NCBI GenBank assembly: GCA_964483025.1
Contig: CAYZZT010000001.1
Span: 1 to 47,887 of the forward strand
DNA: 47,887 bases
Direction: 5' to 3'
From: an uncultured Candidatus Saccharibacteria bacterium
GTDB lineage: Bacteria; Patescibacteriota; Minisyncoccia; Phycocordibacterales; CAIZIN01
In this document: positions 1 to 28,178 of the stretch, in pieces
Position numbering within the stretch: position 1 is the first letter of the stretch
How the letters are laid out: every line of letters starts with the position of its first letter
Position numbers and translations under genes: made by a program
The notes under the pieces: generated by a model
The model's input: the letters and a program-made list of their open reading frames with translations, nothing else
Told to the model about the DNA's origin: nothing
Databases searched by the model: none

Positions 1-63
1 CAGACTAAATTCCAATCTGTTCTTCAAAACCAACAAACCAACCCCAACACCCCAACTACCACC

Positions 64-279
64 ATGAAAGAAAACACTGTATACGCGCTTAAGCTCATTG
101 GATGCATCTTGCTCGGATTCACCTTAGCCTTCGTCGCAATGGCACCCAGAATATGGGCAGCGAGGGAATCGCTCAACGAGATTCGGGCGAAAAGGGAAAT
201 CTTTGAACAGATCAAAAAGGAGGATGAGAAATTCCGCAAGGAACTACGCGAATCCTTTCGTTCTGACAAGGTGAAATAG
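64..279 (+). CDS. small membrane protein, 71 aa, unknown function
   Basis: Intact ORF with one hydrophobic helix (ALKLIGCILLGFTLAFVAMAP) and a K/E-rich tail. A/C-rich leader without SD. Stop TAG 277-279 lies inside a hairpin that precedes hammerhead 1. No family recognised. Confidence 0.5.
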   Translation: MKENTVYALKLIGCILLGFTLAFVAMAPRIWAARESLNEIRAKREIFEQIKKEDEKFRKELRESFRSDKVK

Positions 280-316
280 TGGTAAACCTACTAGGTTCTC
301 GATTAACCTTAAAATC

Positions 317-373
317 GTATCTGTCGGCAAGTGTGTACTTGTCCTGATGAGTCAAAAATGACGAAACAGACCA
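317..373 (+). ncRNA. hammerhead ribozyme, type III (HH1)
   Basis: Stem III 320-324/366-370. GUC cleavage triplet 323-325, cut predicted after C325. Stem I GGCAAG-UGUGUA-CUUGUC 326-343. Core CUGAUGA 344-350. Stem II GUCA-AAAA-UGAC 351-362. GAAA 363-366. All invariant core positions present. Confidence 0.85.
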
Positions 374-1061
374 GATCTTTAATAAAAACAGAAAATTCCT
401 TGCACCAAACCCTGTGCTCACCCCTTCGACAACCTCGCAAAAAAATATTGAGGATCAGGTGGGCTCAGGATTTGGTGCAGGGAGTTGTTGCGACCCCAGA
501 GCACGGAGTGAATAATTTGGGGTGCGGACTCCAAACAAGGGGGAATCGGCGGATTCTTCGGCTCAAGACTGGTAGCTCTTCAAATGGATACACTGGTCAC
601 CGCATGGGAAAAGCCATACACACGAGTTAGGTTTTGTAGGTGGTTGGAGGCTCTAACGCAAGAGCCGTCCGAGAACTGCTTACGAAACCCTGTGATGAGG
701 CAATTTCATGACTGCCTTTTCGATCACAGACTTTATTCTCCCAAAGAGGAAGGGGGAAGTCCCTCTTGTTAACTTGGCAAACCCAGGGGTCTTGTGTCGA
801 ATCAAGATCTCATCGCAACACATTTTCTTGGGTTCCGAAATCCAAGAAAATATTTTCAAAAAAACCGTGGCCTACGTCATCGTAAACGGGCTCGTGATGT
901 CTCTTCCGGAGTATCGCGAGTACGTTCGGAGCAAGTAATTGCTTCGTGGCCTGCTCCCATCGTGAGATGGAAAGCCGAGGTAGAGAAAACTACCTTGTGA
1001 ACAGAAATTTCAACTACTCAATCGAGTACTTGCAATAAATCACGGATAGATTTTCTATCCG
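374..1061 (+). ncRNA. ORF-poor, helix-rich segment between HH1 and HH2; unclassified structured RNA candidate
   Basis: Only short overlapping ORFs in all three plus frames with implausible products; no minus-strand ORF of 60 aa or more between 421 and 1616. Long-range helix 398-414/466-482 (17 bp, one mismatch) encloses helices 416-422/458-464 and 433-436/450-453. Extended hairpin 690-729 and many other local hairpins. No match to tmRNA, RNase P or SRP RNA recognised by eye. Confidence 0.4.
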
Positions 1062-1116
1062 TTACTGTCTCGAAGTGTGTACTTCGACTGATGAGCTTAA
1101 AAAAGCGAAACAGACC
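1062..1116 (+). ncRNA. hammerhead ribozyme, type III (HH2)
   Basis: GUC 1067-1069, cut after C1069. Stem I UCGAAG-UGUGUA-CUUCGA 1070-1087. CUGAUGA 1088-1094. Stem II GCUU-AAAA-AAGC 1095-1106. GAAA 1107-1110. Short stem III 1065-1068/1110-1113 (4 bp). Confidence 0.8.
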
Positions 1117-1585
1117 CTAAACAGCTAAAACTGTTGGGCAAGAAAGTTCTTTAAAATAACAGCTGTAACTCGTCTGTACATGAGAGTGTTTTTATAAACA
1201 TTCTCACGTGCAGGCGAGTGTAGCGCCATAGCATGTGTACTGTGATTAAACATTGTTTTGGTTCATCAAATCGATGAAAACCAAAGCTGTGTACAACCAT
1301 CACACTTTCGACATACCACCAAAAGCATAAACCAGATTAGATAGCAGTCGCTCGAACCCGTCGAGAGCCAACGATTGTTTCATATCTTTTAGTTATGTGA
1401 ATAGGTAGAAGGACCCAAAAACGGTCCGGGTATGTCATGACTCTGAAGGAGAAGGGGACAGTAAGCCTCTTATAAGAGTTATGGAGAGGGCTTGTAGAGC
1501 ATTGGTTGCTCGCTTGTCTAATCTGCTACACACTAATTTTTTTCTTTTGCAAAGTTAAAATCTAACCAAACCAAAACCAAAAACT
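1117..1585 (+). ncRNA. second ORF-free structured stretch downstream of HH2 (leader or ncRNA)
   Basis: No ORF of 60 aa or more on either strand. Long imperfect hairpin about 1171-1220. Long-range pairing cagattagata (about 1335-1347) with tgtctaatctg (about 1517-1530). Several nested hairpins. Ends in an A/C-rich tract aaccaaaccaaaaccaaaaac. Confidence 0.3.
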
Positions 1586-1990
1586 ATGGCCTATTACAGC
1601 ACATTCATATTCCAGTTACCTGGCTGTCCCGAGATTCATTTGAGTACTCGGTACGACATAATTCAGGAGTTCGACCAATGTCGCGGTTTTGGTGGAGGAA
1701 GGATTGCTTTCAAGCCCTTCTATAAACCTAGTCGTCGCATGTGCACGAGCCTGAATTGGGGTGGAGGCAAATCTCCGAGGGTGAAGCTGACTAAAAATCA
1801 GCGGAGAAAGATTCAAACCTTTCTCAAGGTGTTCTACCTCAAGGGTATTCACCACATTCCTCGGAAATACCGAAAGTTCGTAAAGAACGACGGTGTCTTC
1901 CCCCAAGAGTGTCTCCGCTAGGTGCTCTGGGATTGATTGCCTCCACGAGGCAACGGCAAATAATTCGTGGGAGTAGTGAAGCATTTCACT

Positions 1991-2067
1991 GGAGAATAAT
2001 TAAAATATTCTCCTCTCAATTGAGTTCGTCACATGGTGTGGTGGATTCATAGAGAAGTTCTTTAAAA
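1991..2067 (+). other. conserved motif A: hairpin + CAATTGAGTTC-[variable hairpin]-GATTCATAGAGAAGTTCTTTAAAA
   Basis: Hairpin 1991-2013, then conserved blocks 2014-2027 and 2044-2067 around a variable hairpin. Near-identical architecture at 2760-2837. Sits 18 nt upstream of the ORF starting at 2085. Confidence 0.5.
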
Positions 2068-2084
2068 CAAACAAGAGTAAATAT

Positions 2085-2684
2085 ATGAAGACCACACTTA
2101 CATCAGACCGTCTTATCGATTTTTTATTCCTTCTAAGAAAAAAAGGAGTAACTCCAGAAGTATTTGAGAAGTGTTTGGAGAGTAGAATTCTAAACGATGT
2201 GTTCAATCCGGAAGCAAAACTCACGAGCCGTGATGCTTGGCGAGTTGCCTTGGGCTTAGGCAGATATACTTTCATCGTTGACTATAGTATGTCCCTAAGT
2301 AAGATGCTTTTGGATGTTGGTGGATACTGGAACCACGTCGATCGTGATATCAACTCAATAAACTTTCCTATAGTAGGTGAAGGAATTATTGAATATGAGT
2401 TTAGAATTTTCCGGCCACGGGTAAAGACTAGTATGGAGTTGGAAAAAGTGATTAAGCTCATAAAAAGCGAAGACAAACGAAATCCTTGGGGGCCAGCAAA
2501 GATTGAGCATCTTATTGCTTTTGGTGGAAAATTTCCTGAAAAACAACTCAAAGGCAACATTGTCGCTCCTAGCCCGGTTAATATTCATGGAAAGTCAGTA
2601 ATGGTTTTACTTGCGGACGAGCAGGATGTAGACGGGATGATCGATGAACGCTCCATTGAGGTTTGTGGTTGTGACGCCCGCTAG
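2085..2684 (+). CDS. hypothetical protein, 199 aa
   Basis: Longest clean ORF in the hammerhead region with protein-like composition. Antisense ORFs look like shadows. No family recognised. Confidence 0.6.
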   Translation: MKTTLTSDRLIDFLFLLRKKGVTPEVFEKCLESRILNDVFNPEAKLTSRDAWRVALGLGRYTFIVDYSMSLSKMLLDVGGYWNHVDRDINSINFPIVGEGIIEYEFRIFRPRVKTSMELEKVIKLIKSEDKRNPWGPAKIEHLIAFGGKFPEKQLKGNIVAPSPVNIHGKSVMVLLADEQDVDGMIDERSIEVCGCDAR

Positions 2685-2759
2685 TCTGGAAGCCCTAGTT
2701 ACCTTGCGGTTCGTAAAGCCAAGCCTTTAGTTTCGTAGTCGGGAATAAAAAATCTTTTT

Positions 2760-2837
2760 AGCACTTTTTCAAAAGTAAAAAGTGCTTTCAATTGAGTTCT
2801 CAAAATGGTTTGAGAGTTCATAGAGAAGTTCTATAAA
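2760..2837 (+). other. conserved motif B (second copy of motif A architecture)
   Basis: Hairpin 2760-2786. TTCAATTGAGTTC 2787-2799. Variable hairpin tctcaaa/tttgaga 2798-2815. GTTCATAGAGAAGTTCTATAAA 2816-2837. Confidence 0.5.
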
Positions 2838-2840
2838 TTT

Positions 2841-2894
2841 TTGTGTATCCATAGTAAGAATGTTTAATTAAATTTTTTTACTATGGATACACAA
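2841..2894 (+). promoter_or_regulatory. perfect 17-bp hairpin sequestering the start codon of the 2883 ORF
   Basis: ttgtgtatccatagtaa 2841-2857 is the exact reverse complement of ttactatggatacacaa 2878-2894, with a 20-nt loop. ATG 2883-2885 lies in the 3' arm. Confidence 0.6.
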
Positions 2895-3104
2895 AACCAA
2901 AAAGGGGAAAACGCCACCCCGAATTACAAGTTGGCGTTCGTGCTTCTCGCAGTATTTTTTGCAGGGCAGGTGACTGGGTATTTTGCCCATGATCATCCTC
3001 CGGTGAAGAAACCAGCTGAAGTGAATCCTACCCACTTCGATTCTTATTACGAGGATTACGAAGATGGGTACGAAGCTCCTCTTTCGCCCGATGAGGTGAT
3101 TTAG
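2883..3104 (+). CDS. small membrane protein, 73 aa, unknown function
   Basis: ORF with one hydrophobic helix (LAFVLLAVFFAGQVTGYF) and an acidic Y/E/D-rich tail. Same layout as ORF 64-279: stop codon followed by two hairpins and a hammerhead. Confidence 0.5.
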   Translation: MDTQNQKGENATPNYKLAFVLLAVFFAGQVTGYFAHDHPPVKKPAEVNPTHFDSYYEDYEDGYEAPLSPDEVI

Positions 3105-3147
3105 GGGATGGTAGTAAATCTACCAGGTTTGAGAGTTAACCTTAAAA

Positions 3148-3209
3148 CTCTTTCTGTCTCGAAGTGTGTACTTCGGCTGATGATTCCGAAAGGATGAAAC
3201 AGAAACAGT
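3148..3209 (+). ncRNA. hammerhead ribozyme, type III (HH3, variant stem II closing pair)
   Basis: GUC 3156-3158, cut after C3158. Stem I UCGAAG-UGUGUA-CUUCGG 3159-3176. CUGAUGA 3177-3183. Stem II UUCC-GAAA-GGAU 3184-3195, with U-U at the 10.1/11.1 position. GAAA 3196-3199. Stem III 3151-3157/3199-3205 (7 bp). Confidence 0.75.
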
Positions 3210-3353
3210 TCATTGAAAAGCTTGCAAAAGCATGGATACAGCCAAAAGTATTTAATTATTTAAATTCTTCTGGCTGTATCTACCGGGTGGTAAATATAGT
3301 TAACGTTGGTCCAATCGTAAAAACAGGACTCGTATAGCGATAACGTCACCGCT

Positions 3354-3857
3354 TTGTTCATTGTGAAAAATAATCTGATTGCGTTCTACAAAACTATCCT
3401 TGCTTACCTCATTATCGACATCGAGTTTGATAACACAATTTCGGTAATTCTGGATCTTTTCAGGAAATCATCTCCGTCATGGGAGGCGACTGAGGAGAGC
3501 ATTCGGAAACTCCAAGAATGTGTTAATTATCCATCTTTGGTTGAAGATGATAGTGATTGGTCAACCACATTGAATGATTTTATCAAATCGGCATTCAAGG
3601 ATCTTTCGATTCTAAAGAATCCCGAAGCGATGGAGCTCTTTGATGAGTTGGCCAAAAAGTGTCTTCCGACTTTTCGGCACGGTGAAGACATGTTCATCTG
3701 GGCACGTACTATCAAAGAGCGCGTGGGTGGCAGTGCTGTCATCGTGCTCCACGTGAGCGATCTCGAAAGATTTCGCAAGATCATCGAGGAGCATGACCTC
3801 GTGGATGGTTCAACTGAGTGTTACACTCTTGAAGAGTGCATTCAGCTCGGGTCATGA
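3354..3857 (+). CDS. hypothetical protein, up to 167 aa (start uncertain, TTG or GTG)
   Basis: Long ORF with plausible acidic globular composition. No in-frame ATG near the 5' end (candidates TTG 3354, GTG 3363). Followed by an intrinsic terminator. Confidence 0.45.
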   Translation: MFIVKNNLIAFYKTILAYLIIDIEFDNTISVILDLFRKSSPSWEATEESIRKLQECVNYPSLVEDDSDWSTTLNDFIKSAFKDLSILKNPEAMELFDELAKKCLPTFRHGEDMFIWARTIKERVGGSAVIVLHVSDLERFRKIIEEHDLVDGSTECYTLEECIQLGS

Positions 3858-3890
3858 ACCCAAACGCTTTGAAGAACGGCGTACAACTTC

Positions 3891-3927
3891 AACCCCGACT
3901 ATTAATTTAGTTCGGGGTTTTATTTTA
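3891..3927 (+). terminator. intrinsic terminator closing the hammerhead-containing unit
   Basis: aaccccga / ttcggggtt stem followed by a T-rich run ttttatttta. Confidence 0.65.
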
Positions 3928-3945
3928 ATAAATGTTTTGATCATA

Positions 3946-4077
3946 GATTCTCGCATTCGCAAGAATGACAGAAAGGAGGAAATTTATTTTTAAATTTTAA
4001 CAAAATAACCTGGATCCCCGCATTCGCGAGGACGACACAAAATATAGTCATGAATACATTCCTTATTTTGTGTCGTT
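3946..4077. repeat. MITE-like hairpin repeat cluster
   Basis: gattctcgcattcgcaagaatgacag and ctggatccccgcattcgcgaggacgacac modules plus hairpin gacacaaaata...tattttgtgtc. Same family as the loci listed below. Confidence 0.7.
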
Positions 4078-4109
4078 TTTAATTTGAAACGTGGTACAAT
4101 TATTTCATT

Positions 4110-5699
4110 ATGAGTTTCGCAAAAGTTTTTTCTGCGCAAACGGTACTACTGAAACCGCACATTATTAATATTGAAATTGACCTTTCAAAAGGTTTATATA
4201 CTTTTTCATTAATCGGGCTTGCAAGTAAAGAAGTCGATGAAGCAAAAGACAGAGTGGGTGCCGCAATAAAAAATTCTGGCTACACAAGTCCCAAACAAAA
4301 AAATCAAAAAATTGTTGTTTCTCTTGCACCGGCTGATATAAAAAAAGAAGGACCACTTTTTGATGTTCCTATCGCCCTTGCATATCTTATTGCATCCGGT
4401 GATATTAAATTTAATCCAGATAAAAAATTATTTATTGGCGAGCTTGCTCTTGATGGAAGTGTACGACCTGTGCGAGGAGTTTTGCCAATTGTGAAATTTG
4501 CTAAAGATCAAAATTTTTCTGAAGTTTATGTTCCTTCGGAAAATGCCGAGGAGGCACTTTTGGTGGAAGGAATTGATGTCTACGGAATTTCAAATTTGAA
4601 AGAATTGATTGACCATTTGAATGAGAGAAATATTGATTTGGACGATGAAGGTACGGAAGAAGATTTTGTAAATAAAAAACTTTCACCACTTGAAAGAATT
4701 AAAAATGATTTATTGACTGGTGAAAATATTTTGGAAGTTGATGTTGATTTTGCTGATGTGAAAGGAAATGAAACTGCAAAAAGAGGATTAGAAATCGCAG
4801 CAGCGGGGGGACATAATATTTCTATGTGGGGGCCACCGGGTACAGGGAAGACAATGTTGGCAAGAGCATTTCGACATTTACTCCCAGAACTTTCTTTGGA
4901 TGAACAACTCGAAGTTACGAGCATACATTCTGTGGCCGGTGCGCTTCACAATTCTTTGGTAAAAGTTCCCCCGTTTCGAGCACCTCATCATACATCATCT
5001 TATGTATCACTTGTGGGCGGTGGAACTATTCCAAAACCTGGCGAAGTGACTCTCGCACATAAAGGTGTTTTATTTTTAGATGAATTTCCTGAATTTGAAA
5101 CAAGAGTGATAGATGCCCTAAGACAACCCCTAGAAGACAGAGTGGTCACTGTTTCACGAGCAAAAGGTTCGGCAAATTTTCCCGCACAATTTATTTTAGT
5201 TGCTGCGATGAACCCTTGTCCTTGTGGAAATTTTCAATCACGAGACAAAGAATGTATTTGCTCACCAATAGTGATTTCAAGATATCAAAGAAAAATTTCT
5301 GGGCCAATTGTTGATCGTATTGATATGTGGGTAGAAGTGAGTAAGGTGAAACACGGGGAGCTGATGGAAAAAGCAAATGGCGAGAATACAAATGATGTAA
5401 GAAAGAGAGTTGTGAAAGCTCGTGATATACAGAGCAAAAGATTTGCAGAAAAAAAATTGAAAATAAAAACGAACGGCGAAATGAATTCAAGAAATGTAAT
5501 TGCTTGTGCAAATTTATCTGAATCAGCAAAAAAGATTTTAGATCTTTCTGCAAATAAAATTGGGCTATCAGCACGAGGGTATCACAGGGTGGTGAAGCTC
5601 GGAAGAACTATTGCAGATTTAGCAGAAAGTAATGATATAAATGATGCACATATTTTAGAAGCACTTCAGTATAGACCAAAATCTTTTTCTAGTTTTTGA
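4110..5699 (+). CDS. comM: Mg-chelatase-like AAA+ protein, YifB/ComM family
   Basis: N-terminal Lon-protease-like domain, Walker A GPPGTGKT, Walker B LFLDEFPEF, C-terminal ChlI-type region. TACAAT 4095-4100 lies 9 nt before the ATG. Confidence 0.85.
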   Translation: MSFAKVFSAQTVLLKPHIINIEIDLSKGLYTFSLIGLASKEVDEAKDRVGAAIKNSGYTSPKQKNQKIVVSLAPADIKKEGPLFDVPIALAYLIASGDIKFNPDKKLFIGELALDGSVRPVRGVLPIVKFAKDQNFSEVYVPSENAEEALLVEGIDVYGISNLKELIDHLNERNIDLDDEGTEEDFVNKKLSPLERIKNDLLTGENILEVDVDFADVKGNETAKRGLEIAAAGGHNISMWGPPGTGKTMLARAFRHLLPELSLDEQLEVTSIHSVAGALHNSLVKVPPFRAPHHTSSYVSLVGGGTIPKPGEVTLAHKGVLFLDEFPEFETRVIDALRQPLEDRVVTVSRAKGSANFPAQFILVAAMNPCPCGNFQSRDKECICSPIVISRYQRKISGPIVDRIDMWVEVSKVKHGELMEKANGENTNDVRKRVVKARDIQSKRFAEKKLKIKTNGEMNSRNVIACANLSESAKKILDLSANKIGLSARGYHRVVKLGRTIADLAESNDINDAHILEALQYRPKSFSSF

Positions 5700-5720
5700 G
5701 AAACTAGAAAAAGATTTTGG
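5676..5720. terminator. 20-bp perfect inverted repeat spanning the comM stop codon
   Basis: ccaaaatctttttctagttt 5676-5695 pairs with aaactagaaaaagattttgg 5701-5720. Stop TGA 5697-5699 is in the loop. Confidence 0.5.
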
Positions 5721-5756
5721 TCTAAGAATTATGAATTAAGAATTAGGAATTATGAA

Positions 5757-5790
5757 GAAAATGCCTGACCCGAAGGGTCAGGCATTTTCA
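5757..5790. terminator. bidirectional terminator hairpin between convergent genes
   Basis: aatgcctgaccc-gaa-gggtcaggcatt with A-run and T-run flanks, embedded in AT-word inverted repeats 5728-5846. Confidence 0.7.
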
Positions 5791-5846
5791 TGTATTAAAT
5801 TTATTCTTAATTCATAATTCCTAATTCTTAATTCTAGCCTTTTTTG

Positions 5847-7088
5847 CTACTGCAAAAAAGGCTTAACATATTCATACAAAGAGTTTTGTTTGAGAAGAAA
5901 TGATGAGATGAGTATCTTTTTATCGGTGTTGATAAAGTCTTGTAAACTTTTTCCAGTTTCAGTATTTATTGCACGGCTAATATAAGTTGTTGTTAATGCA
6001 TTTATTTTTGAATTTCCACTTTCATCATTTACAGATACGATTAGTCCAATAAGATTATTGCTGGAATTAAAAATACCTCCCCCAGAAGAACCGTGTTGTC
6101 CAACTTTTGAAATACTTGTTTCAAATACATCAACATTGTTTCCTCCTAATGTGAATACATTTGTAATATTTATTACGTCTGCAACAAAATTTAAATATTT
6201 ACGAAGTGAAAGTGCTCCTAATGTACCAGCTGGATATCCAGCTACTAAAATTTTATTTCCAGAGCTTTGTTCTGTTAATGCTTCTGTATTTATGTTTGTG
6301 TGCGGAATATTTGAATCTAAATTTGTACCGTCAGTTTTTGAATTTATTGAAAGAAAAGCAAAATCATTTTCTCCTGTGCCTCGAGCACTTTGTGAAAAAA
6401 GAACGCTAGCATTTTTCTTTAACCAATCTTCATTAATATAAATTAGTGATGCTTTATATTTATCTGTTGCAATTTCTCCTTGTCGGATTACACAGTCTCT
6501 GTTTGGTATAAGATAATTTTCCGCAACATGTGCATTTGTTAAAATAATTCCTTTTTCTGATATGACGACACCACTACCCGTTGAGATAGAAACCATATTT
6601 CCTTTTGTAGATACACAAAAAATATTTATAACACTTTGTTTGGAATTATTATAAACATTAGTCCACTCACCTAAGGCTATTCCTCTATTTATCTCTTCTG
6701 TGATTTGTGGGAGCTCAATACTAGGAACTGGAAGATTTTTTAGTGATGGAGTTTCCTTTGCTTCTGGTTTTTTAACAGGAGTTGGTATTGGAGCTTTAGG
6801 AGGATTTCCTTTTGTGGTTTCAGTATTGATAGGCGGAATCTGTTTTAGTGTAGTAGAAATTTCTTTTTTAGGAATCGTTGGCTGTGTTTCAATTTTGTTT
6901 TTTGCAATATCAACATTTCTTTCTTCAATGTTTACAAAAATAGGGGTAGTATTTAATTGAATAGGAGTAGAAGTCGATTGATTTAGTTTTAAATCAATAT
7001 TATGTCCGACGAAGGTGAATGACCATGCGAGGACGGCTATTAAAACTCTAGAAAAGACTTGTCCAGCGATTTGTATTAAAGGTCCCAT
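5847..7088 (-). CDS. membrane-anchored trypsin-like serine protease (S1C/HtrA-like, no PDZ recognised)
   Basis: N-terminal hydrophobic anchor and a P/T/K-rich linker. Catalytic motifs TNAHV (His) and GSSGGG (Ser). Confidence 0.75.
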   Translation of the reverse strand: MGPLIQIAGQVFSRVLIAVLAWSFTFVGHNIDLKLNQSTSTPIQLNTTPIFVNIEERNVDIAKNKIETQPTIPKKEISTTLKQIPPINTETTKGNPPKAPIPTPVKKPEAKETPSLKNLPVPSIELPQITEEINRGIALGEWTNVYNNSKQSVINIFCVSTKGNMVSISTGSGVVISEKGIILTNAHVAENYLIPNRDCVIRQGEIATDKYKASLIYINEDWLKKNASVLFSQSARGTGENDFAFLSINSKTDGTNLDSNIPHTNINTEALTEQSSGNKILVAGYPAGTLGALSLRKYLNFVADVINITNVFTLGGNNVDVFETSISKVGQHGSSGGGIFNSSNNLIGLIVSVNDESGNSKINALTTTYISRAINTETGKSLQDFINTDKKILISSFLLKQNSLYEYVKPFLQ

Positions 7089-7168
7089 AATTTGTAGCTT
7101 AATAATAAACTATAATATCCCTTTTGACAAATATTTTCAATATGGTATTGTTTTAGGGGAGAAAAATT

Positions 7169-7483
7169 ATGCTAGTAAGAATTAAAACAGAAACTGGGTC
7201 TATGTATGACTTTGGCATTACAAGTTCGAAGTATTCGGCTTTTGCCCAAGTCATTCTAGGCGGAAACACAAAATGGGAAATTTACCTCGTTTCAGGTAAG
7301 CTGGAAGAAGAGTCTCTTGAAGATATGTTTCTCGCCGAAGGTTGGGCAAAAGCCAGTCGCGATATTCGGGAATACATCGGGAAACTGAATATTCCGAAGT
7401 TCATTAACACGATGAAGCGTTTTGCATATCCGGGTATCAATCTGGAATACTATGTAGCGAATCATCGCATCCCCGTTAGCTAA
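7169..7483 (+). CDS. hypothetical protein, 104 aa
   Basis: Clean ORF, visibly more G+C-rich than its neighbours. SD-like aggggag upstream; hairpin plus T-run downstream. No family recognised. Confidence 0.55.
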   Translation: MLVRIKTETGSMYDFGITSSKYSAFAQVILGGNTKWEIYLVSGKLEEESLEDMFLAEGWAKASRDIREYIGKLNIPKFINTMKRFAYPGINLEYYVANHRIPVS

Positions 7484-7548
7484 GGCTGACGGGGTTTTCT
7501 TTTTGGGGGTTTTTTGGTATAGTACTTGCAATTATCGACACCGTTTGT

Positions 7549-7707
7549 GTCATTTCCGTGAAGACGGGAATCCAGTCTGTAATTCGAGACTTGTGTCACA
7601 CATAATTTCTTGCTAGAAATTTGTGCGACTCCGTCTCAGCTCGACAGCCTGCGACCGTGGAATCTGGTACCCACCAGATTCCACCCCCGCATTCGCGAGG
7701 ATGACAG
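7549..7707. repeat. MITE-like hairpin repeat element
   Basis: Begins gtcatttccgtgaagacgggaatccagtctg and ends cccccgcattcgcgaggatgacag. Internal segment shared with 12400-12516 and 40280-40440. Confidence 0.7.
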
Positions 7708-7728
7708 AAAGTGAGTTTTTAATTATTT

Positions 7729-7799
7729 GCGGGTATAGTTTAATGGTAGAATGACACACTTCCAATGTGTAGATTCGGGTTCGATTCCCGGTACCCGCA
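7729..7799 (+). tRNA. tRNA-Gly (anticodon UCC)
   Basis: Cloverleaf: acceptor gcgggta/tacccgc, D-arm tagtttaatggtagaa, anticodon loop cuUCCaa, T-arm cgggttcgattcccg, discriminator A. CCA not encoded. Confidence 0.9.
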
Positions 7800-7847
7800 C
7801 AAATAGAAAATACTTCCTTCGGGAAGTATTTTCTATTTGTGCGGGTA
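7792..7847 (+). terminator. 26-bp perfect hairpin whose 5' arm includes the tRNA acceptor 3' strand
   Basis: tacccgcacaaatagaaaatacttcc-ttcg-ggaagtattttctatttgtgcgggta. Confidence 0.55.
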
Positions 7848-7969
7848 AGCAAGCAAAGAGTTTTGCTTGCGTCCGGGAATCGAAAGCCAGAATAAAATTT
7901 TCTAGCAAGAAAAATTCATGAGGCGGGGTCGCGAGCAGATTTTTGCGACGGCAAAAATCTGACTTGTGA

Positions 7970-8027
7970 CCGATGTCCCGGTACATCAGAAAAATATTTG
8001 TAGCCGATGTCCCGGTATCCGCACAAA
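7970..8027 (+). repeat. two partial direct copies of the tRNA-Gly 3' end (att-like scars)
   Basis: ccgatgtcccggtacatcag (7970-7989) and ccgatgtcccggtatccgcacaaa (8004-8027), compared with the tRNA 3' end ttcgattcccggtacccgcacaaa. Confidence 0.55.
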
Positions 8028-9297: not shown

Positions 9298-10125
9298 ATG
9301 ATTCATAAATATTGTTATTTTCAGGGTGCCATTACTCAGTTTGATAAGGCTCACATATCACTAAATGATCTCGGGGTCCTTCGTGGTTATGGAGTTTTTG
9401 ATTTTTATAGGTCATACAATGGCAAACCTTTTTATTTAAAAGAGCATTATGCTCGTTTTCAAAACTCAGCTAGAAGCATTGGCCTTACTGTACCGGTTTC
9501 ATTTAAGAATTTTGAAAAAATTACTCTAGATTTATTAAAGAAAAATAAAGTAAAAGATGCAAGTTTCAGGGCTGTATTACTTGGAGGGCCGGTTCAAAAT
9601 AGTTTAGCTCCGGCCAGGCCAACTTTTTATATTCTTAATGAAGAGGCATATGCACCGACAGACGAACAAGCAAAAAATGGAGTGAGTTTAATGGTGCATG
9701 AATATCTCCGCTATATTCCAGAAGCAAAAACAACAAATTATATGGAGGCCGTGAAGATGCAGAAAGAAAAAATAAAACAAAAAGCCTATGAGATTTTGTA
9801 TGTTTTAAATGGAGAGGTTTTGGAATGTTCCACAAGCAATATTTTTATGATAAAAGGTAAGCATCTTGTAACACCAAAGAAAAATATTCTAAAAGGAATT
9901 ACGAGAAAAGTTATTTTGAAAATTGCGAAGAAGGATTTTATAATAGAGGAGAGAGATGTAGAAATTTATGAGCTTCTTTTGGCTGATGAAGTATTTATTT
10001 CTGGTACGAATAAGGAAATCCTTCCTATTGTAAAAGTTGGAAAGAAAGTTATTGGAAATGGAAAAGTGGGGGAGAAGACAAAATTATTGATGAAACTTTG
10101 GAAGGACATAACACATAACATATAA
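9298..10125 (+). CDS. class IV (fold type IV) aminotransferase, branched-chain or D-amino-acid type
   Basis: GYGVFDFYRSYNGKPFYLKEHYARF N-terminal signature. Catalytic-Lys context EAKTTNYMEAV. C-terminal ISGTNKEILPI motif. ATG 9298 preferred over the upstream alternative start. Confidence 0.8.
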   Translation: MIHKYCYFQGAITQFDKAHISLNDLGVLRGYGVFDFYRSYNGKPFYLKEHYARFQNSARSIGLTVPVSFKNFEKITLDLLKKNKVKDASFRAVLLGGPVQNSLAPARPTFYILNEEAYAPTDEQAKNGVSLMVHEYLRYIPEAKTTNYMEAVKMQKEKIKQKAYEILYVLNGEVLECSTSNIFMIKGKHLVTPKKNILKGITRKVILKIAKKDFIIEERDVEIYELLLADEVFISGTNKEILPIVKVGKKVIGNGKVGEKTKLLMKLWKDITHNI

Positions 10126-10130
10126 CTTGT

Positions 10131-10203
10131 GTCATTCCCGCGGAGGCGGGAATCCATGAATTAAATACTACAGACTGGATTCCCGCCTCCGCGGGAATGA
10201 CAG
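10131..10203. repeat. MITE-like element (two inverted hairpin modules)
   Basis: gtcattcccgcggaggcgggaatccatg ... cagactggattcccgcctccgcgggaatgacag. Confidence 0.75.
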
Positions 10204-10259
10204 TCGATAAGCAAAAAATCGCCGTTAGGCGATTTTTTGATTTTTCCCTCGAGAGAAAA

Positions 10260-16776: not shown

Positions 16777-17901
16777 ATGTATATAAACAGATACCCAAAA
16801 ATAGAGAACAAGATAGAGGCAGGGAAAGTCCTTGTTATTTATGGTGCTAGGCAAGTAGGGAAATCTTCTCTTGTAAAAAAATATCTAGAAAGTGTGAATG
16901 AAAAATATTTATTTTTTAACGGAGAAGATGTGAATGTTTCTGCAATTTTTTCCTCGATGAATTTAAAGCTATTAAATGAGTCTATTGGAAATGTTAACTT
17001 AATCGTGTTAGATGAGGCACAGGTGATACCAAATGTTGGGACATCGCTTAAGCTCCTTGTTGATACAAAACCGGATTTGAAAATAATTGTAACTGGGTCA
17101 TCCTCGTTTGAACTTTCTGGGCAAGTGGGTGAGCCGTTAGTTGGAAGAATGAATGTTATAACGCTGTTTTCGCTTTGGGAAAAAGAAATAATGGATGCAG
17201 GCCTAGATAACTATATTGATAATATTGACTTTGCTTTACGTTTTGGTAGGTATCCAGCAGTTGTTAAAACTCAAGTTGTGGAGAATAAAAAAGAAATACT
17301 TACAAATATTGTAAATGGTTATTTGCTCAAAGATATTCTGGCTTTTGAAAGAGTAAAAAATTCAAAACTGATTTTAGATTTACTGAAACTACTTGCGTAT
17401 CAAGTTGGGGGTGAAGTATCAATTCAAGAGGTAGCAATCAAGTTATCTGTAAGTCGAAATATAATAAATAGGTTTTTGAATTTACTGGAGCAGAATTTTA
17501 TTATTTTTCCGCTTCGCTCGTATTCAAAAAATTTAAGGAGTGAAATACGGAAAAAAGAGAAATATTATTTTTACGATCTTGGAATTCGGAATGCCTTGAT
17601 AGAAAATTTCGATTCGATTGATGTGCGAGATGATATCGGAGCGCTGTGGGAGAATTTTTTACTGATTGAAAGAATTAAGAGAAATAATTATATTGAGCCA
17701 TATAAGTCAATATATTTTTGGAGGAAATCTACCGGAGCAGAAGTAGATTTTGTGGAGATTTATAGTGATAAAATGAATGGCTTTGAGTTTTCATATAAAG
17801 AAAAAAATAAGAAGAAATCTAAAAAATCTTGGCTGGATGATTATCCAAAAGCAACATGGAAAAATATTTTCAAAGAAAATTTTAGAGAGTTTGTTTTATA
17901 G
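16777..17901 (+). CDS. AAA+ ATPase, AAA_14/DUF4143-type
   Basis: Walker A GARQVGKSSL, Walker B VLDEAQ. The C-terminal part is typical of the DUF4143 family. TATACT 6 nt upstream of the ATG. Confidence 0.75.
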   Translation: MYINRYPKIENKIEAGKVLVIYGARQVGKSSLVKKYLESVNEKYLFFNGEDVNVSAIFSSMNLKLLNESIGNVNLIVLDEAQVIPNVGTSLKLLVDTKPDLKIIVTGSSSFELSGQVGEPLVGRMNVITLFSLWEKEIMDAGLDNYIDNIDFALRFGRYPAVVKTQVVENKKEILTNIVNGYLLKDILAFERVKNSKLILDLLKLLAYQVGGEVSIQEVAIKLSVSRNIINRFLNLLEQNFIIFPLRSYSKNLRSEIRKKEKYYFYDLGIRNALIENFDSIDVRDDIGALWENFLLIERIKRNNYIEPYKSIYFWRKSTGAEVDFVEIYSDKMNGFEFSYKEKNKKKSKKSWLDDYPKATWKNIFKENFREFVL

Positions 17902-17902
17902 A

Positions 17903-18154
17903 ATTATAAAACAAAAGAGCGAGTTTCCTGAAAGGAAACTCGCTATTTTGGTTTGTGGTTTTTTCAGACTGGATTCCCGTCTTCACGGGAATGACAATAC
18001 GGAATTCTGAATTCCAGTCTGCGTCGTCTGCGTACAGTCTGCGTAAGTCTGCGGGTCGTACTCGACCATTTACACCACTTTATCCACAATCCCATACTTC
18101 TTTGCCTCGTCGGCACTCATGAAGAAGTCGCGGTCGGCGTCTTTTTCGATTTTT
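17903..18154 (+). repeat. about 255-bp direct repeat, copy 2 (overlaps the true clpP 3' end)
   Basis: See copy 1. Confidence 0.85.
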
Positions 18155-25938: not shown

Positions 25939-26046
25939 TTGTTTGTAATAAACTTCAATCGCCCTAATTACTACTCTATTAAATTGTACAAACTACTTTT
26001 TACAAACCTTCGATATTCGCCCACCACCCCCTAAATTTATTGGAAA

Positions 26047-26200
26047 GTGCGGGGCACCCGCGCCCATAAATTCAAACAGATGGGCGGGGTTACCCGCGCC
26101 CTTAAATACTTAAAGAAGGGCGGGGTTACCCGCGCCCTTAAATACTTAAAGAAGGGCGGGGTTACCCGCGCCCTTAAATACTTAAAGAAGGGCGGGGTTA
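26047..26200. repeat. 36-bp tandem repeat: one degenerate unit, three exact units, one partial unit
   Basis: Units gggcggggttacccgcgcccttaaatacttaaagaa at 26082, 26118 and 26154. Partial unit 26190-26200. Degenerate unit 26047-26081. Confidence 0.9.
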
Positions 26201-26503
26201 AGGAAAATATAGTCACGATTACGTTTCTTATTTTCCTTAAAAAACGAATTCCGTTCTTTCGGAACGGAATTACTTCATGTGTCAATAATACCACGGTTTA
26301 AATTTAGGGGCAAGTAGGATGGCGTACCATCCTCGCAGACCAGCACAGACTAAACGCAGACTACGCAGACCAAAATACTAAATCATAAAAAAGACTCTAC
26401 TCTGTCCTTTTTCGGTGTAGGGGATGCAAAAGAGTTTGCATTTAAATATTGAAGTGGTGGTCTGATATTAGATTTCAGTTCTAGATATTGAAGAAAGGTA
26501 AAT

Positions 26504-27923: not shown

Positions 27924-28018
27924 GTTTTTTATTTAAATAGTAGAACAATTTTCTTTCTTCGTGATATAATATAAGTAATAAAATTTATAAAGCTATTTTA
28001 AATTTTAAACCTGGATCC

Positions 28019-28178
28019 CCGCATTCGCGAGGATGACATAAAACATAATCGTGGGTACACTCGTTGTTTTGTGTCATTTTTAAATTTTACATTTTTAACA
28101 ATATAACCTGGATCCCCGGAGTACCGAGGACGGAAAAAAATGTAATCGCTTCGCTTCTTATTTTTTAACCGATTTGAA
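28019..28178. repeat. MITE-like repeat cluster upstream of pilB
   Basis: Two cctggatcccc...gaggaYg modules, each followed by a hairpin tail (gacataaaac...gttttgtgtc). Confidence 0.7.

Follow-up and report, generated by a model that had tools for sequence, protein, structure and literature searches.

The stretch of DNA analysed here, hereafter the window, comprises the 47,887 nucleotides of contig CAYZZT010000001.1 (assembly GCA_964483025.1) from an uncultured Candidatus Saccharibacteria bacterium. It is a stretch of chromosome of the Saccharibacteria type, from the Candidate Phyla Radiation (CPR, or Patescibacteria), and its large open reading frames (ORFs) encode, among other products, ComM, a trypsin-like protease, RNase Y, NusA, a PilB-type ATPase and RecJ. 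Between a gene for a TrmB-family regulator and comM lies an array of small ORFs interrupted on the plus strand by three type III hammerhead ribozyme motifs, HH1 to HH3. We consider it probable that these are functional hammerheads that would cut one accessory-operon transcript of about 4 kb into cassette-sized RNAs.

The three motifs were located with a descriptor of our own and by direct reading of the sequence, and are arranged as follows:

320-370, plus strand: HH1, type III hammerhead, predicted cut after C325; layout TCTGTC / GGCAAG-TGTGTA-CTTGTC / CTGATGA / GTCA-AAAA-TGAC / GAAA-CAGA, with a stem I of 6 bp closed by a UGUGUA loop, stem II GUCA/UGAC with an AAAA loop, and a stem III of 5 bp.
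1065-1113, plus strand: HH2, type III hammerhead, predicted cut after C1069; layout CTGTC / TCGAAG-TGTGTA-CTTCGA / CTGATGA / GCTT-AAAA-AAGC / GAAA-CAG, with a stem III of 4 bp.
3151-3205, plus strand: HH3, type III hammerhead, predicted cut after C3158; layout TTTCTGTC / TCGAAG-TGTGTA-CTTCGG / CTGATGA / T-TCC-GAAA-GGA-T / GAAA-CAGAAA, with a stem II that has a U10.1-U11.1 closing pair followed by UCC/GGA and a GAAA loop, and a stem III of 7 bp.

Each motif has a GUC triplet, CUGAUGA and GAAA, with stems I and II closed by loops (6 bp and 3-4 bp, respectively) and stem III open, and the invariant core (C3 U4 G5 A6 N7 G8 A9, G12 A13 A14, A15.1-U16.1, C17) is complete in all three. The descriptor matches nothing else on either strand of the 47.9 kb window, dinucleotide-preserving shuffles yield 0.037 hits per window against the three observed, and no fourth copy appeared when a covariance model was run, unfiltered, over the entire window, the next best score being 13 bits. 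The cut sites and the full set of core positions proposed in the initial annotation match our reading and the descriptor, and the fragment sizes that it predicted, 744 nt and 2089 nt, are correct.

The Rfam family RF00008 (clan CL00010; gathering score 48.5) assigns 39.0 bits to HH1 (E 5e-5) and 35.5 bits to HH2 (E 4.8e-4), and HH3 is absent from its matches even at E<=10. The initial annotation had counted a covariance-model score below threshold against the ribozymes, and this is technically what the search returned. We attribute the result to a poor fit of RF00008 to the subfamily in question, not to false motifs. An independent covariance model, built from 40 IMG/VR viral hammerheads and containing no window or CPR sequence, gives 75.1 bits for HH3, 66.2 for HH1 and 65.9 for HH2 (E ~1e-17 to 1e-20), and its next match within the window scores 11.5 bits. 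Members of the subfamily share with RF00008 the full core, the GUC triplet, the closed stems I and II, the open stem III and conserved loops that might make a loop I-loop II contact, but differ from it in the UGUGUA loop I, in the RAAA loop II of 4 nt and in the base of stem II, which often carries a U-U or A-A closing pair or an additional nucleotide. That the motifs are chance matches or inactive look-alikes, as the Rfam scores of HH1 and HH2 and the unreported HH3 might be taken to mean, is so improbable as to be practically negligible, given the excess over shuffled windows, the E-values of the viral-built model, the three intact cores and the covariation of the family described next.

For this comparison we used a DNA search pattern that fixed the core, the loop and two stem III pairs and left stems I and II free, so that pairing was not demanded. 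It retrieved 74 IMG/VR viral contigs, which form the viral comparison set of 74 loci, and 89 genomic stretches from one-genome-per-species bacterial and archaeal genomes, which were cut at 8 kb and are referred to here as CPR loci. Among the pattern-only matches, stem I is fully paired in all 81 viral and in 102 of the 105 genomic/CPR copies (183/186 in total), through 32 and 62 distinct stem I sequences, respectively, where chance would give full pairing in 0.28% of matches. A gap-free alignment of 91 copies points the same way: 93.3% of its cells pair, compared with 64.8% in column shuffles and 35-46% with slid partners; its covariation score is 0.80 versus 0.23 in shuffles; 14 of the 16 pairs vary on both sides, and each stem I position shows four or five pair types. 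Since this alignment was drawn partly from the descriptor, which requires pairing, the pattern-only figures provide the cleaner test. Among the homologues the catalytic core does not vary and all three stems of the subfamily vary in a compensatory manner, a combination that argues for selection on the RNA and its active fold and against selection on a mere repeat in the DNA. Conservation of loop I (UGUGUA) and of the A-rich loop II reaches at least 90%, a figure imposed in part by the search pattern.

On these grounds HH1 to HH3 can be assigned to a large subfamily with a 6-bp stem I bearing the UGUGUA loop and a short stem II bearing the RAAA loop, whose members come from environmental phage contigs and, where the genome is cellular, mostly from Patescibacteria. 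Judged from core, scores and covariation, they are real members of the hammerhead class, and their self-cleavage is predicted. A stem II identical to that of HH3 (UUCC-GAAA-GGAU) recurs in loci L077, L101, L120 and L153 and in viral loci, and natural hammerheads may open stem II with a U-U, the mismatch that supports the highest level of cleavage (Perreault et al. 2011, PMC3088659). The U-U pair of HH3 is a recurrent, documented active variant and no sign of decay.

The closest genomic relatives of the window are L150 (Candidatus Saccharibacteria) and a lake metagenome-assembled genome (MAG), bin-301, represented by contigs L118 and L159; a further locus, L166, shares 95-96% identity with the window. 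In the array of one relative, UGUGUA-type copies are mixed with a second hammerhead subtype, whose loop I is shorter (GUGA-type) and whose stem II is long, at about 25 nt. It lies at the following places:

L118 743-808 and 2185-2248; L159 538-603, 6185-6248, 6972-7036 and 7835-7900 (minus strand): second hammerhead subtype.

The initial annotation had also raised the prospect of additional ribozyme classes near the cluster. None was found: Rfam gives no twister, twister-sister, pistol, hatchet or HDV-like match in the window at E<=10, and at the gathering threshold it reports one tRNA only.

A public contig, L001, matches the window exactly and extends it upstream by 2.5 kb, with a dksA/traR-type gene, a 156-aa ORF, the TrmB-family regulator gene (L001 1076-1822) and a bidirectional terminator; an Rfam search of these 2.5 kb returned nothing credible. 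About 100 nt before position 1 of the window, at L001 2425-2452, there is a sigma-70 promoter, TTGACA-16-TATAAT, that matches the consensus at 12/12 positions. The elements that delimit the array on either side are:

L001 2412-2429: TGTCA-N8-TGACA palindrome, overlapping the -35 box of the array promoter.
3891-3926, plus strand: GC-rich terminator-type hairpin AACCCCGA...TCGGGGTT with a T-run, preceding comM and conserved in L166, L118 and L150; probably where the unit ends.

No plus-strand terminator-like site was scored inside the array. With a promoter upstream, no internal terminator and a terminator at 3891-3926, the simplest reading is a single unit of about 4 kb carrying three ribozymes. 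The proposal of the initial annotation that three related, same-strand type III hammerheads punctuate one transcription unit is in this way supported by the scores of the independent model, by covariation and by the promoter/terminator layout.

The regulator gene next to the array is a recurrent companion of such clusters, since a TrmB homologue lies by the arrays in 38 of the 89 CPR loci and in 0 of the 74 viral ones. Orthologues, defined as at least 45% identical to the protein at this locus, are co-directional with the array in 15 of 16 loci, and the first hammerhead follows them at a distance of 1.0-2.0 kb; the more distant paralogues are on the opposite strand in 17 of 19 loci, where inspection of coordinates places them divergent from the array. 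The same promoter is found between TrmB and the array in 13 of the 16 orthologue loci, which cover several CPR classes, and its -35 box constitutes the right half of the TGTCA-N8-TGACA palindrome. The CPR loci, 637 kb in all, contain 17 copies of this palindrome, that of L001 and those of 16 other loci, whereas 634 kb of viral loci contain none; it is a likely operator, putatively for TrmB.

The set of 89 stretches also gives a measure of how common these clusters are. Going by their titles, Patescibacteria/CPR groups contribute 61 of them, of which 37 are Saccharibacteria and the others Paceibacterota, Parcubacteria, Kaiserbacteria, Minisyncoccia and further groups; 19 more are MAGs and 9 have other names. 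Two to eight hammerheads are found within 8 kb in 41 of the 89, and all copies are on one strand in 38 of these 41 multi-copy CPR loci and in 47 of 47 viral ones. The clustering, which had been regarded as unusual for so compact a genome, is therefore common in this lineage, being shared by 41 of 89 related loci, and clusters were published for prophages in 2011. The inter-ribozyme segments of CPR loci have a median length of 569 nt, and the typical one holds a single small ORF that starts 25-50 nt past one ribozyme and ends 40-100 nt before the next. The longest ORF is on the ribozyme strand in 55 of 72 CPR segments and in 69 of 69 viral segments.

Perreault et al. (PMC3088659) described prophage hammerhead clusters around single genes of varying identity, showed that they cleave both in vitro and in E. 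coli, and proposed that they divide long transcripts into gene-length RNAs. Their clusters, in prophages of Clostridium scindens, Azorhizobium caulinodans and Agrobacterium tumefaciens, likewise consist of several same-strand hammerheads, which lie within ~2-3 kb and bound single genes or short gene blocks of varying identity, just as HH1 to HH3 bound plus-strand segments of 744 and 2089 nt; U10.1-U11.1 variants are also common to both and are noted as active in that paper. The present locus differs in that it is outside any prophage, with no integrase adjoining, and in its conserved CPR frame with a TrmB-family gene, a palindrome promoter and a post-ribozyme motif, which are absent from that paper; moreover, those clusters were tested biochemically, whereas ours is known from its sequence. 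Given the 2011 publication, the ribozymes and their arrangement are of a kind already known. What appears to be new is the context, a conserved and apparently regulated array in a CPR chromosome with cassette turnover at the ribozyme module, and the literature that was searched contained no paper linking hammerheads or ribozymes with Patescibacteria, CPR, Saccharibacteria, TrmB or integrons.

This precedent raises the question of whether the region is a decayed prophage or other phage-derived island, in which case the ribozymes would be remnants of the processing of phage transcripts and would do nothing for the host. Several observations are in keeping with such an origin: the same subfamily is abundant in IMG/VR viral contigs (74 contigs), often with 2-5 same-strand copies per locus, the published bacterial clusters sit in prophages, the G+C content of the region is ~40-52% compared with a window mean of 36.5%, and its ORFs are orphans. 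We nevertheless consider it improbable. No structural, terminase or integrase match to PHROG was obtained among the cassette ORFs or their neighbours, the flanking genes are housekeeping genes, the synteny of TrmB, promoter, palindrome and array is kept across several CPR classes and in 0 of the 74 viral loci, the downstream motif described below follows 43% of CPR copies but 0.7% of viral copies, and the three cores are intact. A search of GenBank phages with window positions 1-8000 returned tRNA and comM fragments only, and no related phage. The hammerhead cluster has as its neighbours here the dksA/traR-type gene, TrmB, comM, the trypsin-like protease, tRNA-Gly, RNase Y and NusA, and the neighbours of the 16 arrays with at least three ribozymes are housekeeping genes and TrmB (11/16), with no integrase or phage structural family among them. 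The general association of bacterial hammerheads with phages, invoked in the initial annotation, does not extend to this locus, a CPR chromosome with housekeeping genes, nor were phage or integrase families found beside such arrays.

The segments that the ribozymes would release contain the following features:

64-279, plus strand: 71-aa ORF of the first cassette, with a hydrophobic stretch at its N terminus; 40 nt separate its end from HH1, and it is 98% identical in L166.
382-486, plus strand: long hairpin of 105 nt that opens the HH1-HH2 segment.
708-938, plus strand: ORF of 76 aa, of doubtful coding capacity; L118 loses its start and frame, and mismatches are even over codon positions.
1586-1921, plus strand: ORF of 111 aa with a CA-rich leader, within a genome-specific block.
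2085-2684, plus strand: ORF of 199 aa with no family match, in the genome-specific block.
2883-3104, plus strand: ORF of 73 aa, small membrane-type; ends 46 nt before HH3, shows third-position bias and is conserved in L166 and L118.
3354-3857, plus strand: ORF of 167 aa in the last cassette, without a family match; L166 has another gene in its place.

By their conservation, ORFs 64-279 and 2883-3104 look real. Pfam and PHROG scans of the ORFs between ribozymes found no family, and among 51 cassette ORFs from relatives most also have none, with a few matches to receiver, helicase, VWA, XRE and Phd (antitoxin) families. In place of 1586-1921 (plus), public gene callers selected the overlapping opposite-strand ORF 1616-1984 (minus), which would be antisense to the ribozyme transcript; neither of the two has a family match. 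In several cassettes the stretch from the motif to the start codon is a CA-rich leader that lacks a Shine-Dalgarno sequence; (CCAAAA)n runs are among its features:

30-63 and 1561-1585, and in L154 past its hammerhead: CA-rich leaders.

The HH1-HH2 segment is of a different character. Its opening 105-nt hairpin, directly past a hammerhead and the GTTCTTTAA motif, is unchanged in four copies from two genomes whose flanks are ~80% identical; outside the window it is found at L118 1-105, in two copies in L159 and at L166 ~4690-4795. It has no Rfam match and no viral match, and in metagenomes it occurs in a single contig, a 95%-identical relative. Positions 326-710 fold far better than shuffles (z = -5.7). 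Since 708-938, the sole sizeable ORF of 326-1069, is not conserved, this segment may be a non-coding RNA.

A structured segment of this sort, bounded by direct repeats of hammerheads, could also be excised and circularised by self-ligation or by an RtcB-type ligase, so that 326-1069, for instance, would give a circle of 744 nt. Between copies, the strands of stem III are near-identical (CUGUC ... GAAACAG, in 76-91 of 91 sequences), so that joining C1069 to G326 would rebuild a complete hammerhead, and type III hammerheads are the type that circular RNA replicons use. The likeness to retrozymes and viroid-like RNAs comprises type III direct repeats around a structured, maybe non-coding segment (326-1069) and stem III strands that can be read as interchangeable between copies; the setting differs from that of retrozymes, being a bacterial chromosome with a sigma-70 promoter and without long terminal repeats, target-site duplications or a reverse transcriptase. 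We give circularisation little credence, since in most CPR segments a leader is followed by an ordinary ORF, neither a reverse transcriptase nor RtcB is seen in the locus, and the elements are in chromosomal DNA under a normal promoter; spliced or circular products of bacterial clusters were, in addition, sought by Perreault et al. (PMC3088659) and none was found.

These arrays show a further regularity. A motif G[AT]TC[AT]TT, usually GTTCTTTRAA, lies 6-10 nt past A15.1 in 71 of 165 CPR copies (43%), compared with 1 of 143 viral copies (0.7%) and 1.1% of random positions. The pattern GWTCWTTRA has seven matches in the window, four of them in the array (374, 1146, 2057 and 3208), and misses the variant copies at 2828 (GTTCTATAAA) and 19-28 (GTTCTTCAAA). 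The copies in the array and the structures that accompany them are:

19-28, plus strand: motif GTTCTTCAAA, within the leader that precedes the first ORF and close to where the primary transcript has its 5' end.
374-382, plus strand: motif GATCTTTAA, 4 nt past HH1.
1146-1155, plus strand: motif GTTCTTTAAA, past HH2 and its tail hairpin; left end of a 1682-nt block missing in L166.
2057-2066, plus strand: motif GTTCTTTAAA, past element X1, without a hammerhead.
2828-2837, plus strand: motif GTTCTATAAA, past element X2; right end of the block missing in L166 and L118.
3208-3217, plus strand: motif GTTCATTGAA, 3 nt past HH3; a different cassette follows in L166.
280-319, plus strand: conserved two-hairpin module TGGTAAACCTAC..AGGTT-N7-AACCT-TAAAA, upstream of HH1.
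3105-3150, plus strand: two-hairpin module paralogous to 280-319, in front of HH3.
1042-1062, plus strand: 9-bp hairpin ACGGATAGA-TTT-TCTATCCGT, ending 2 nt before HH2.
2013-2056, plus strand: element X1, conserved flanks around a 13-bp hairpin, in the place of a hammerhead.
2785-2827, plus strand: element X2, second copy, its hairpin carrying compensatory changes.

The motif is also found just past the conserved promoter, at positions comparable to 19-28, in L158, L077 and L137. From its placement, GTTCTTTRAA reads as the start of every cassette and as the point where related arrays lose homology. A pairing of GTTCTTTRAA with upstream sequence that would extend stem III works with a bulge at HH1 and fails at HH3 and in most relatives, and was discarded. 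On the other side of the ribozyme, 57% of CPR copies have a hairpin immediately adjoining the 5' strand of stem III, compared with 16% of control positions; the one at 1042-1062 would cap the 3' end of the upstream cleavage product. An optional tail hairpin, CCCUAAACAG-N6-8-CUGUYGGG, is present between hammerhead and motif at 1117-1145 and in hammerhead tails of L159, L118 and L166; its arms repeat the ACAG/CUGU of stem III and so could pair alternatively with the 3' strand of the ribozyme after cleavage. Element X, which has flanks CAATTGAGTTC ... TTCATAGAGAA around a 12-13 bp hairpin followed by a GTTCTWTAAA motif, is confined to this genome. As a candidate for a new ribozyme it was rejected, being a plain hairpin of 12-13 bp with no conserved junction and no Rfam family, found in this genome only.

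Comparison of close relatives shows what varies within this frame. Four genomes have a common frame that runs from TrmB and the promoter to the terminator and comM, and differ inside it: L150 has one hammerhead, the window three, L166 three and bin-301 (L159 and L118) at least seven. L166 lacks exactly 1156-2837, and one GTTCTTTAAA stands there in place of the GTTCTTTAAA (1146-1155) and GTTCTATAAA (2828-2837) that lie on either side of the 1682-nt block in the window; this block holds ORFs 1586-1921 and 2085-2684, and its hammerhead slot is taken by element X. The junction in L118 is the same as in L166. Past HH3 and the motif, L166 carries a different, XRE-like cassette, and homology returns at the terminator. 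L159 has the motif as the joint between an HH2-type tail and HH1-type downstream sequence, and an indel between L084 and L125 ends at the 3' end of a hammerhead. Close pairs with indels were sought across the CPR loci, only four pairs of which were similar enough. One cassette protein is 73% identical between Saccharibacteria and Minisyncoccia genomes in which the adjacent TrmB proteins are 50% identical. The indel junctions indicate that the unit of variation runs from a motif to the next hammerhead, and two readings would fit the breakpoints, site-specific exchange at the core or homologous recombination between repeated modules.

The hammerhead-motif module could therefore be regarded as acting mainly in the form of DNA, as a portable recombination site or homology anchor of an integron-like platform in which cleavage would be secondary or would serve the mobile cassettes. 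The exact absence of 1156-2837 from L166 with one motif for two, the same junction in L118, the swapped cassette past HH3, the range from one hammerhead in L150 to at least seven in bin-301 within the same TrmB-comM frame and the L084/L125 indel all speak for it, as do the mostly orphan cassette ORFs, with their few antitoxin, XRE, receiver and helicase matches, and the greater similarity between lineages of a cassette protein than of TrmB. We hold it to be possible but on the whole unlikely. No integrase, transposase or other recombinase is a recurrent neighbour or is present in L001 or window 1-8000; GTTCTTTRAA is unlike the integron core GTTRRRY; plain homologous recombination also puts breakpoints at the edges of shared repeats; the invariant core and the covariation reflect selection on an RNA fold, which a DNA site does not need; and the motif is also found in the promoter-proximal leader at 19-28, which fits a signal of the 5' untranslated region. 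This explanation is compatible with transcript cleavage and not exclusive of it.

The likeness to integron arrays is one of sequence layout: mostly orphan, promoterless-looking cassettes behind one promoter, each ending in a structured repeat, with presence or absence of cassettes between close relatives and breakpoints at a short core (window versus L166, L118/L159 and L150). The differences are the lack of IntI or another recombinase, a repeat that is a hammerhead RNA motif and not an attC hairpin, and the core sequence itself. Membership in the integrons was accordingly rejected, with no IntI in L001 and the window or among recurrent neighbours, a motif other than GTTRRRY, and a hammerhead as the structured repeat.

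From the observed motifs, family covariation, promoter and terminator matches, synteny and cassette indels, we infer a course of events that includes cleavage in vivo of a single transcript, control by TrmB and an effect on stability or translation. The strong conserved promoter just upstream of the window, whose -35 box overlaps the putative TrmB operator, would fire, and RNA polymerase would continue to the terminator at ~3891-3926. Each hammerhead would fold and cut co-transcriptionally, after C325, C1069 and C3158. The upstream products would end in a possibly protective 3' hairpin and a 2',3'-cyclic phosphate, and the downstream products would begin with a 5'-OH and the folded ribozyme body, followed by GTTCTTTRAA and the leader of the next cistron. 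The outcome would be separate cassette RNAs whose stability and translation are uncoupled from those of their neighbours with neither a promoter nor a terminator for each cassette. Synthetic insulators of the RiboJ type place a hammerhead between promoter and gene in a similar manner. There, as here, a hammerhead upstream of a cistron sets the 5' end independently of the upstream sequence, but those insulators are engineered, whereas the present ones are natural, repeated and accompanied by a hairpin that would cap the 3' end of the upstream RNA. The idea of transcript cutting has already been raised in the literature (PMC3088659, PMC6765202).

Some of our results weigh against this interpretation. 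The curated Rfam threshold is reached by none of the three motifs, stem III of HH2 has just 4 bp, and the descriptor behind the cluster statistics demands pairing, which biases some of the counts. The link to TrmB is one of synteny, and element X2 matches a promoter at 9/12 positions, so that internal promoters are possible. Two inter-ribozyme stretches have 330-470 nt without a convincing ORF, segment 1070-3158 opens with ~430 nt of this kind, and 708-938 is not coding-like; insulation of messenger RNAs may therefore not describe every segment.

Other structures were noted near the array and elsewhere in the window. On the minus strand of L001, at 1850-2215, an 11/12 promoter with an extended -10 precedes a G+C-rich structured stretch of ~300 nt, with two mini-ORFs of 4-5 codons behind perfect Shine-Dalgarno sequences and no Rfam match; the stretch ends at the bidirectional terminator that it has in common with TrmB, and diverges from the array promoter. 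The tRNA-Gly at 7729-7799 (72.1 bits) is followed by a terminator-like hairpin. Tandem G+C-rich hairpins (GGGCGGGGTTACCCGCGCCC and an AT-rich spacer) occupy 26036-26300, where Termite-leu scores 37.8 bits, below its gathering score of 51. Palindromic intergenic hairpins (e.g. CATTCCCGCGGAGGCGGGAATC) at 3946-4041, 10104-10225, 17893-18021 and 27962-28052 give weak FtrB and miRNA-like Rfam matches and resemble a REP-type repeat family.

The role of bacterial self-cleaving ribozymes other than glmS has been called "largely elusive" (PMC6765202), and most known clusters are in poorly conserved prophage regions, where function is hard to study. Here, an ordinary hammerhead cluster is found in a conserved, apparently regulated chromosomal setting that recurs across CPR classes, a context that makes the role of bacterial hammerheads more testable; at the same time, the Rfam hammerhead model misses a large environmental subfamily. 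The predictions are that expression of the array depends on TrmB, that 5'-OH ends fall at 326, 1070 and 3159, that the motif influences translation or stability, and that cassettes turn over at the ribozyme module, and with some Saccharibacteria now culturable such tests are within reach. More tentatively, and with less than even confidence, we propose a system, widespread in Patescibacteria and apparently undescribed, in which a TrmB-family regulator and a TGTCA-N8-TGACA promoter/operator would drive a hypervariable array of cassettes, each extending from a GTTCTTTRAA start to a hairpin and hammerhead end, with the module both releasing the cassette RNAs and marking the joint at which cassettes are exchanged. 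If this is true, these bacteria would possess a ribozyme-punctuated functional analogue of the integron that operates without an integrase.

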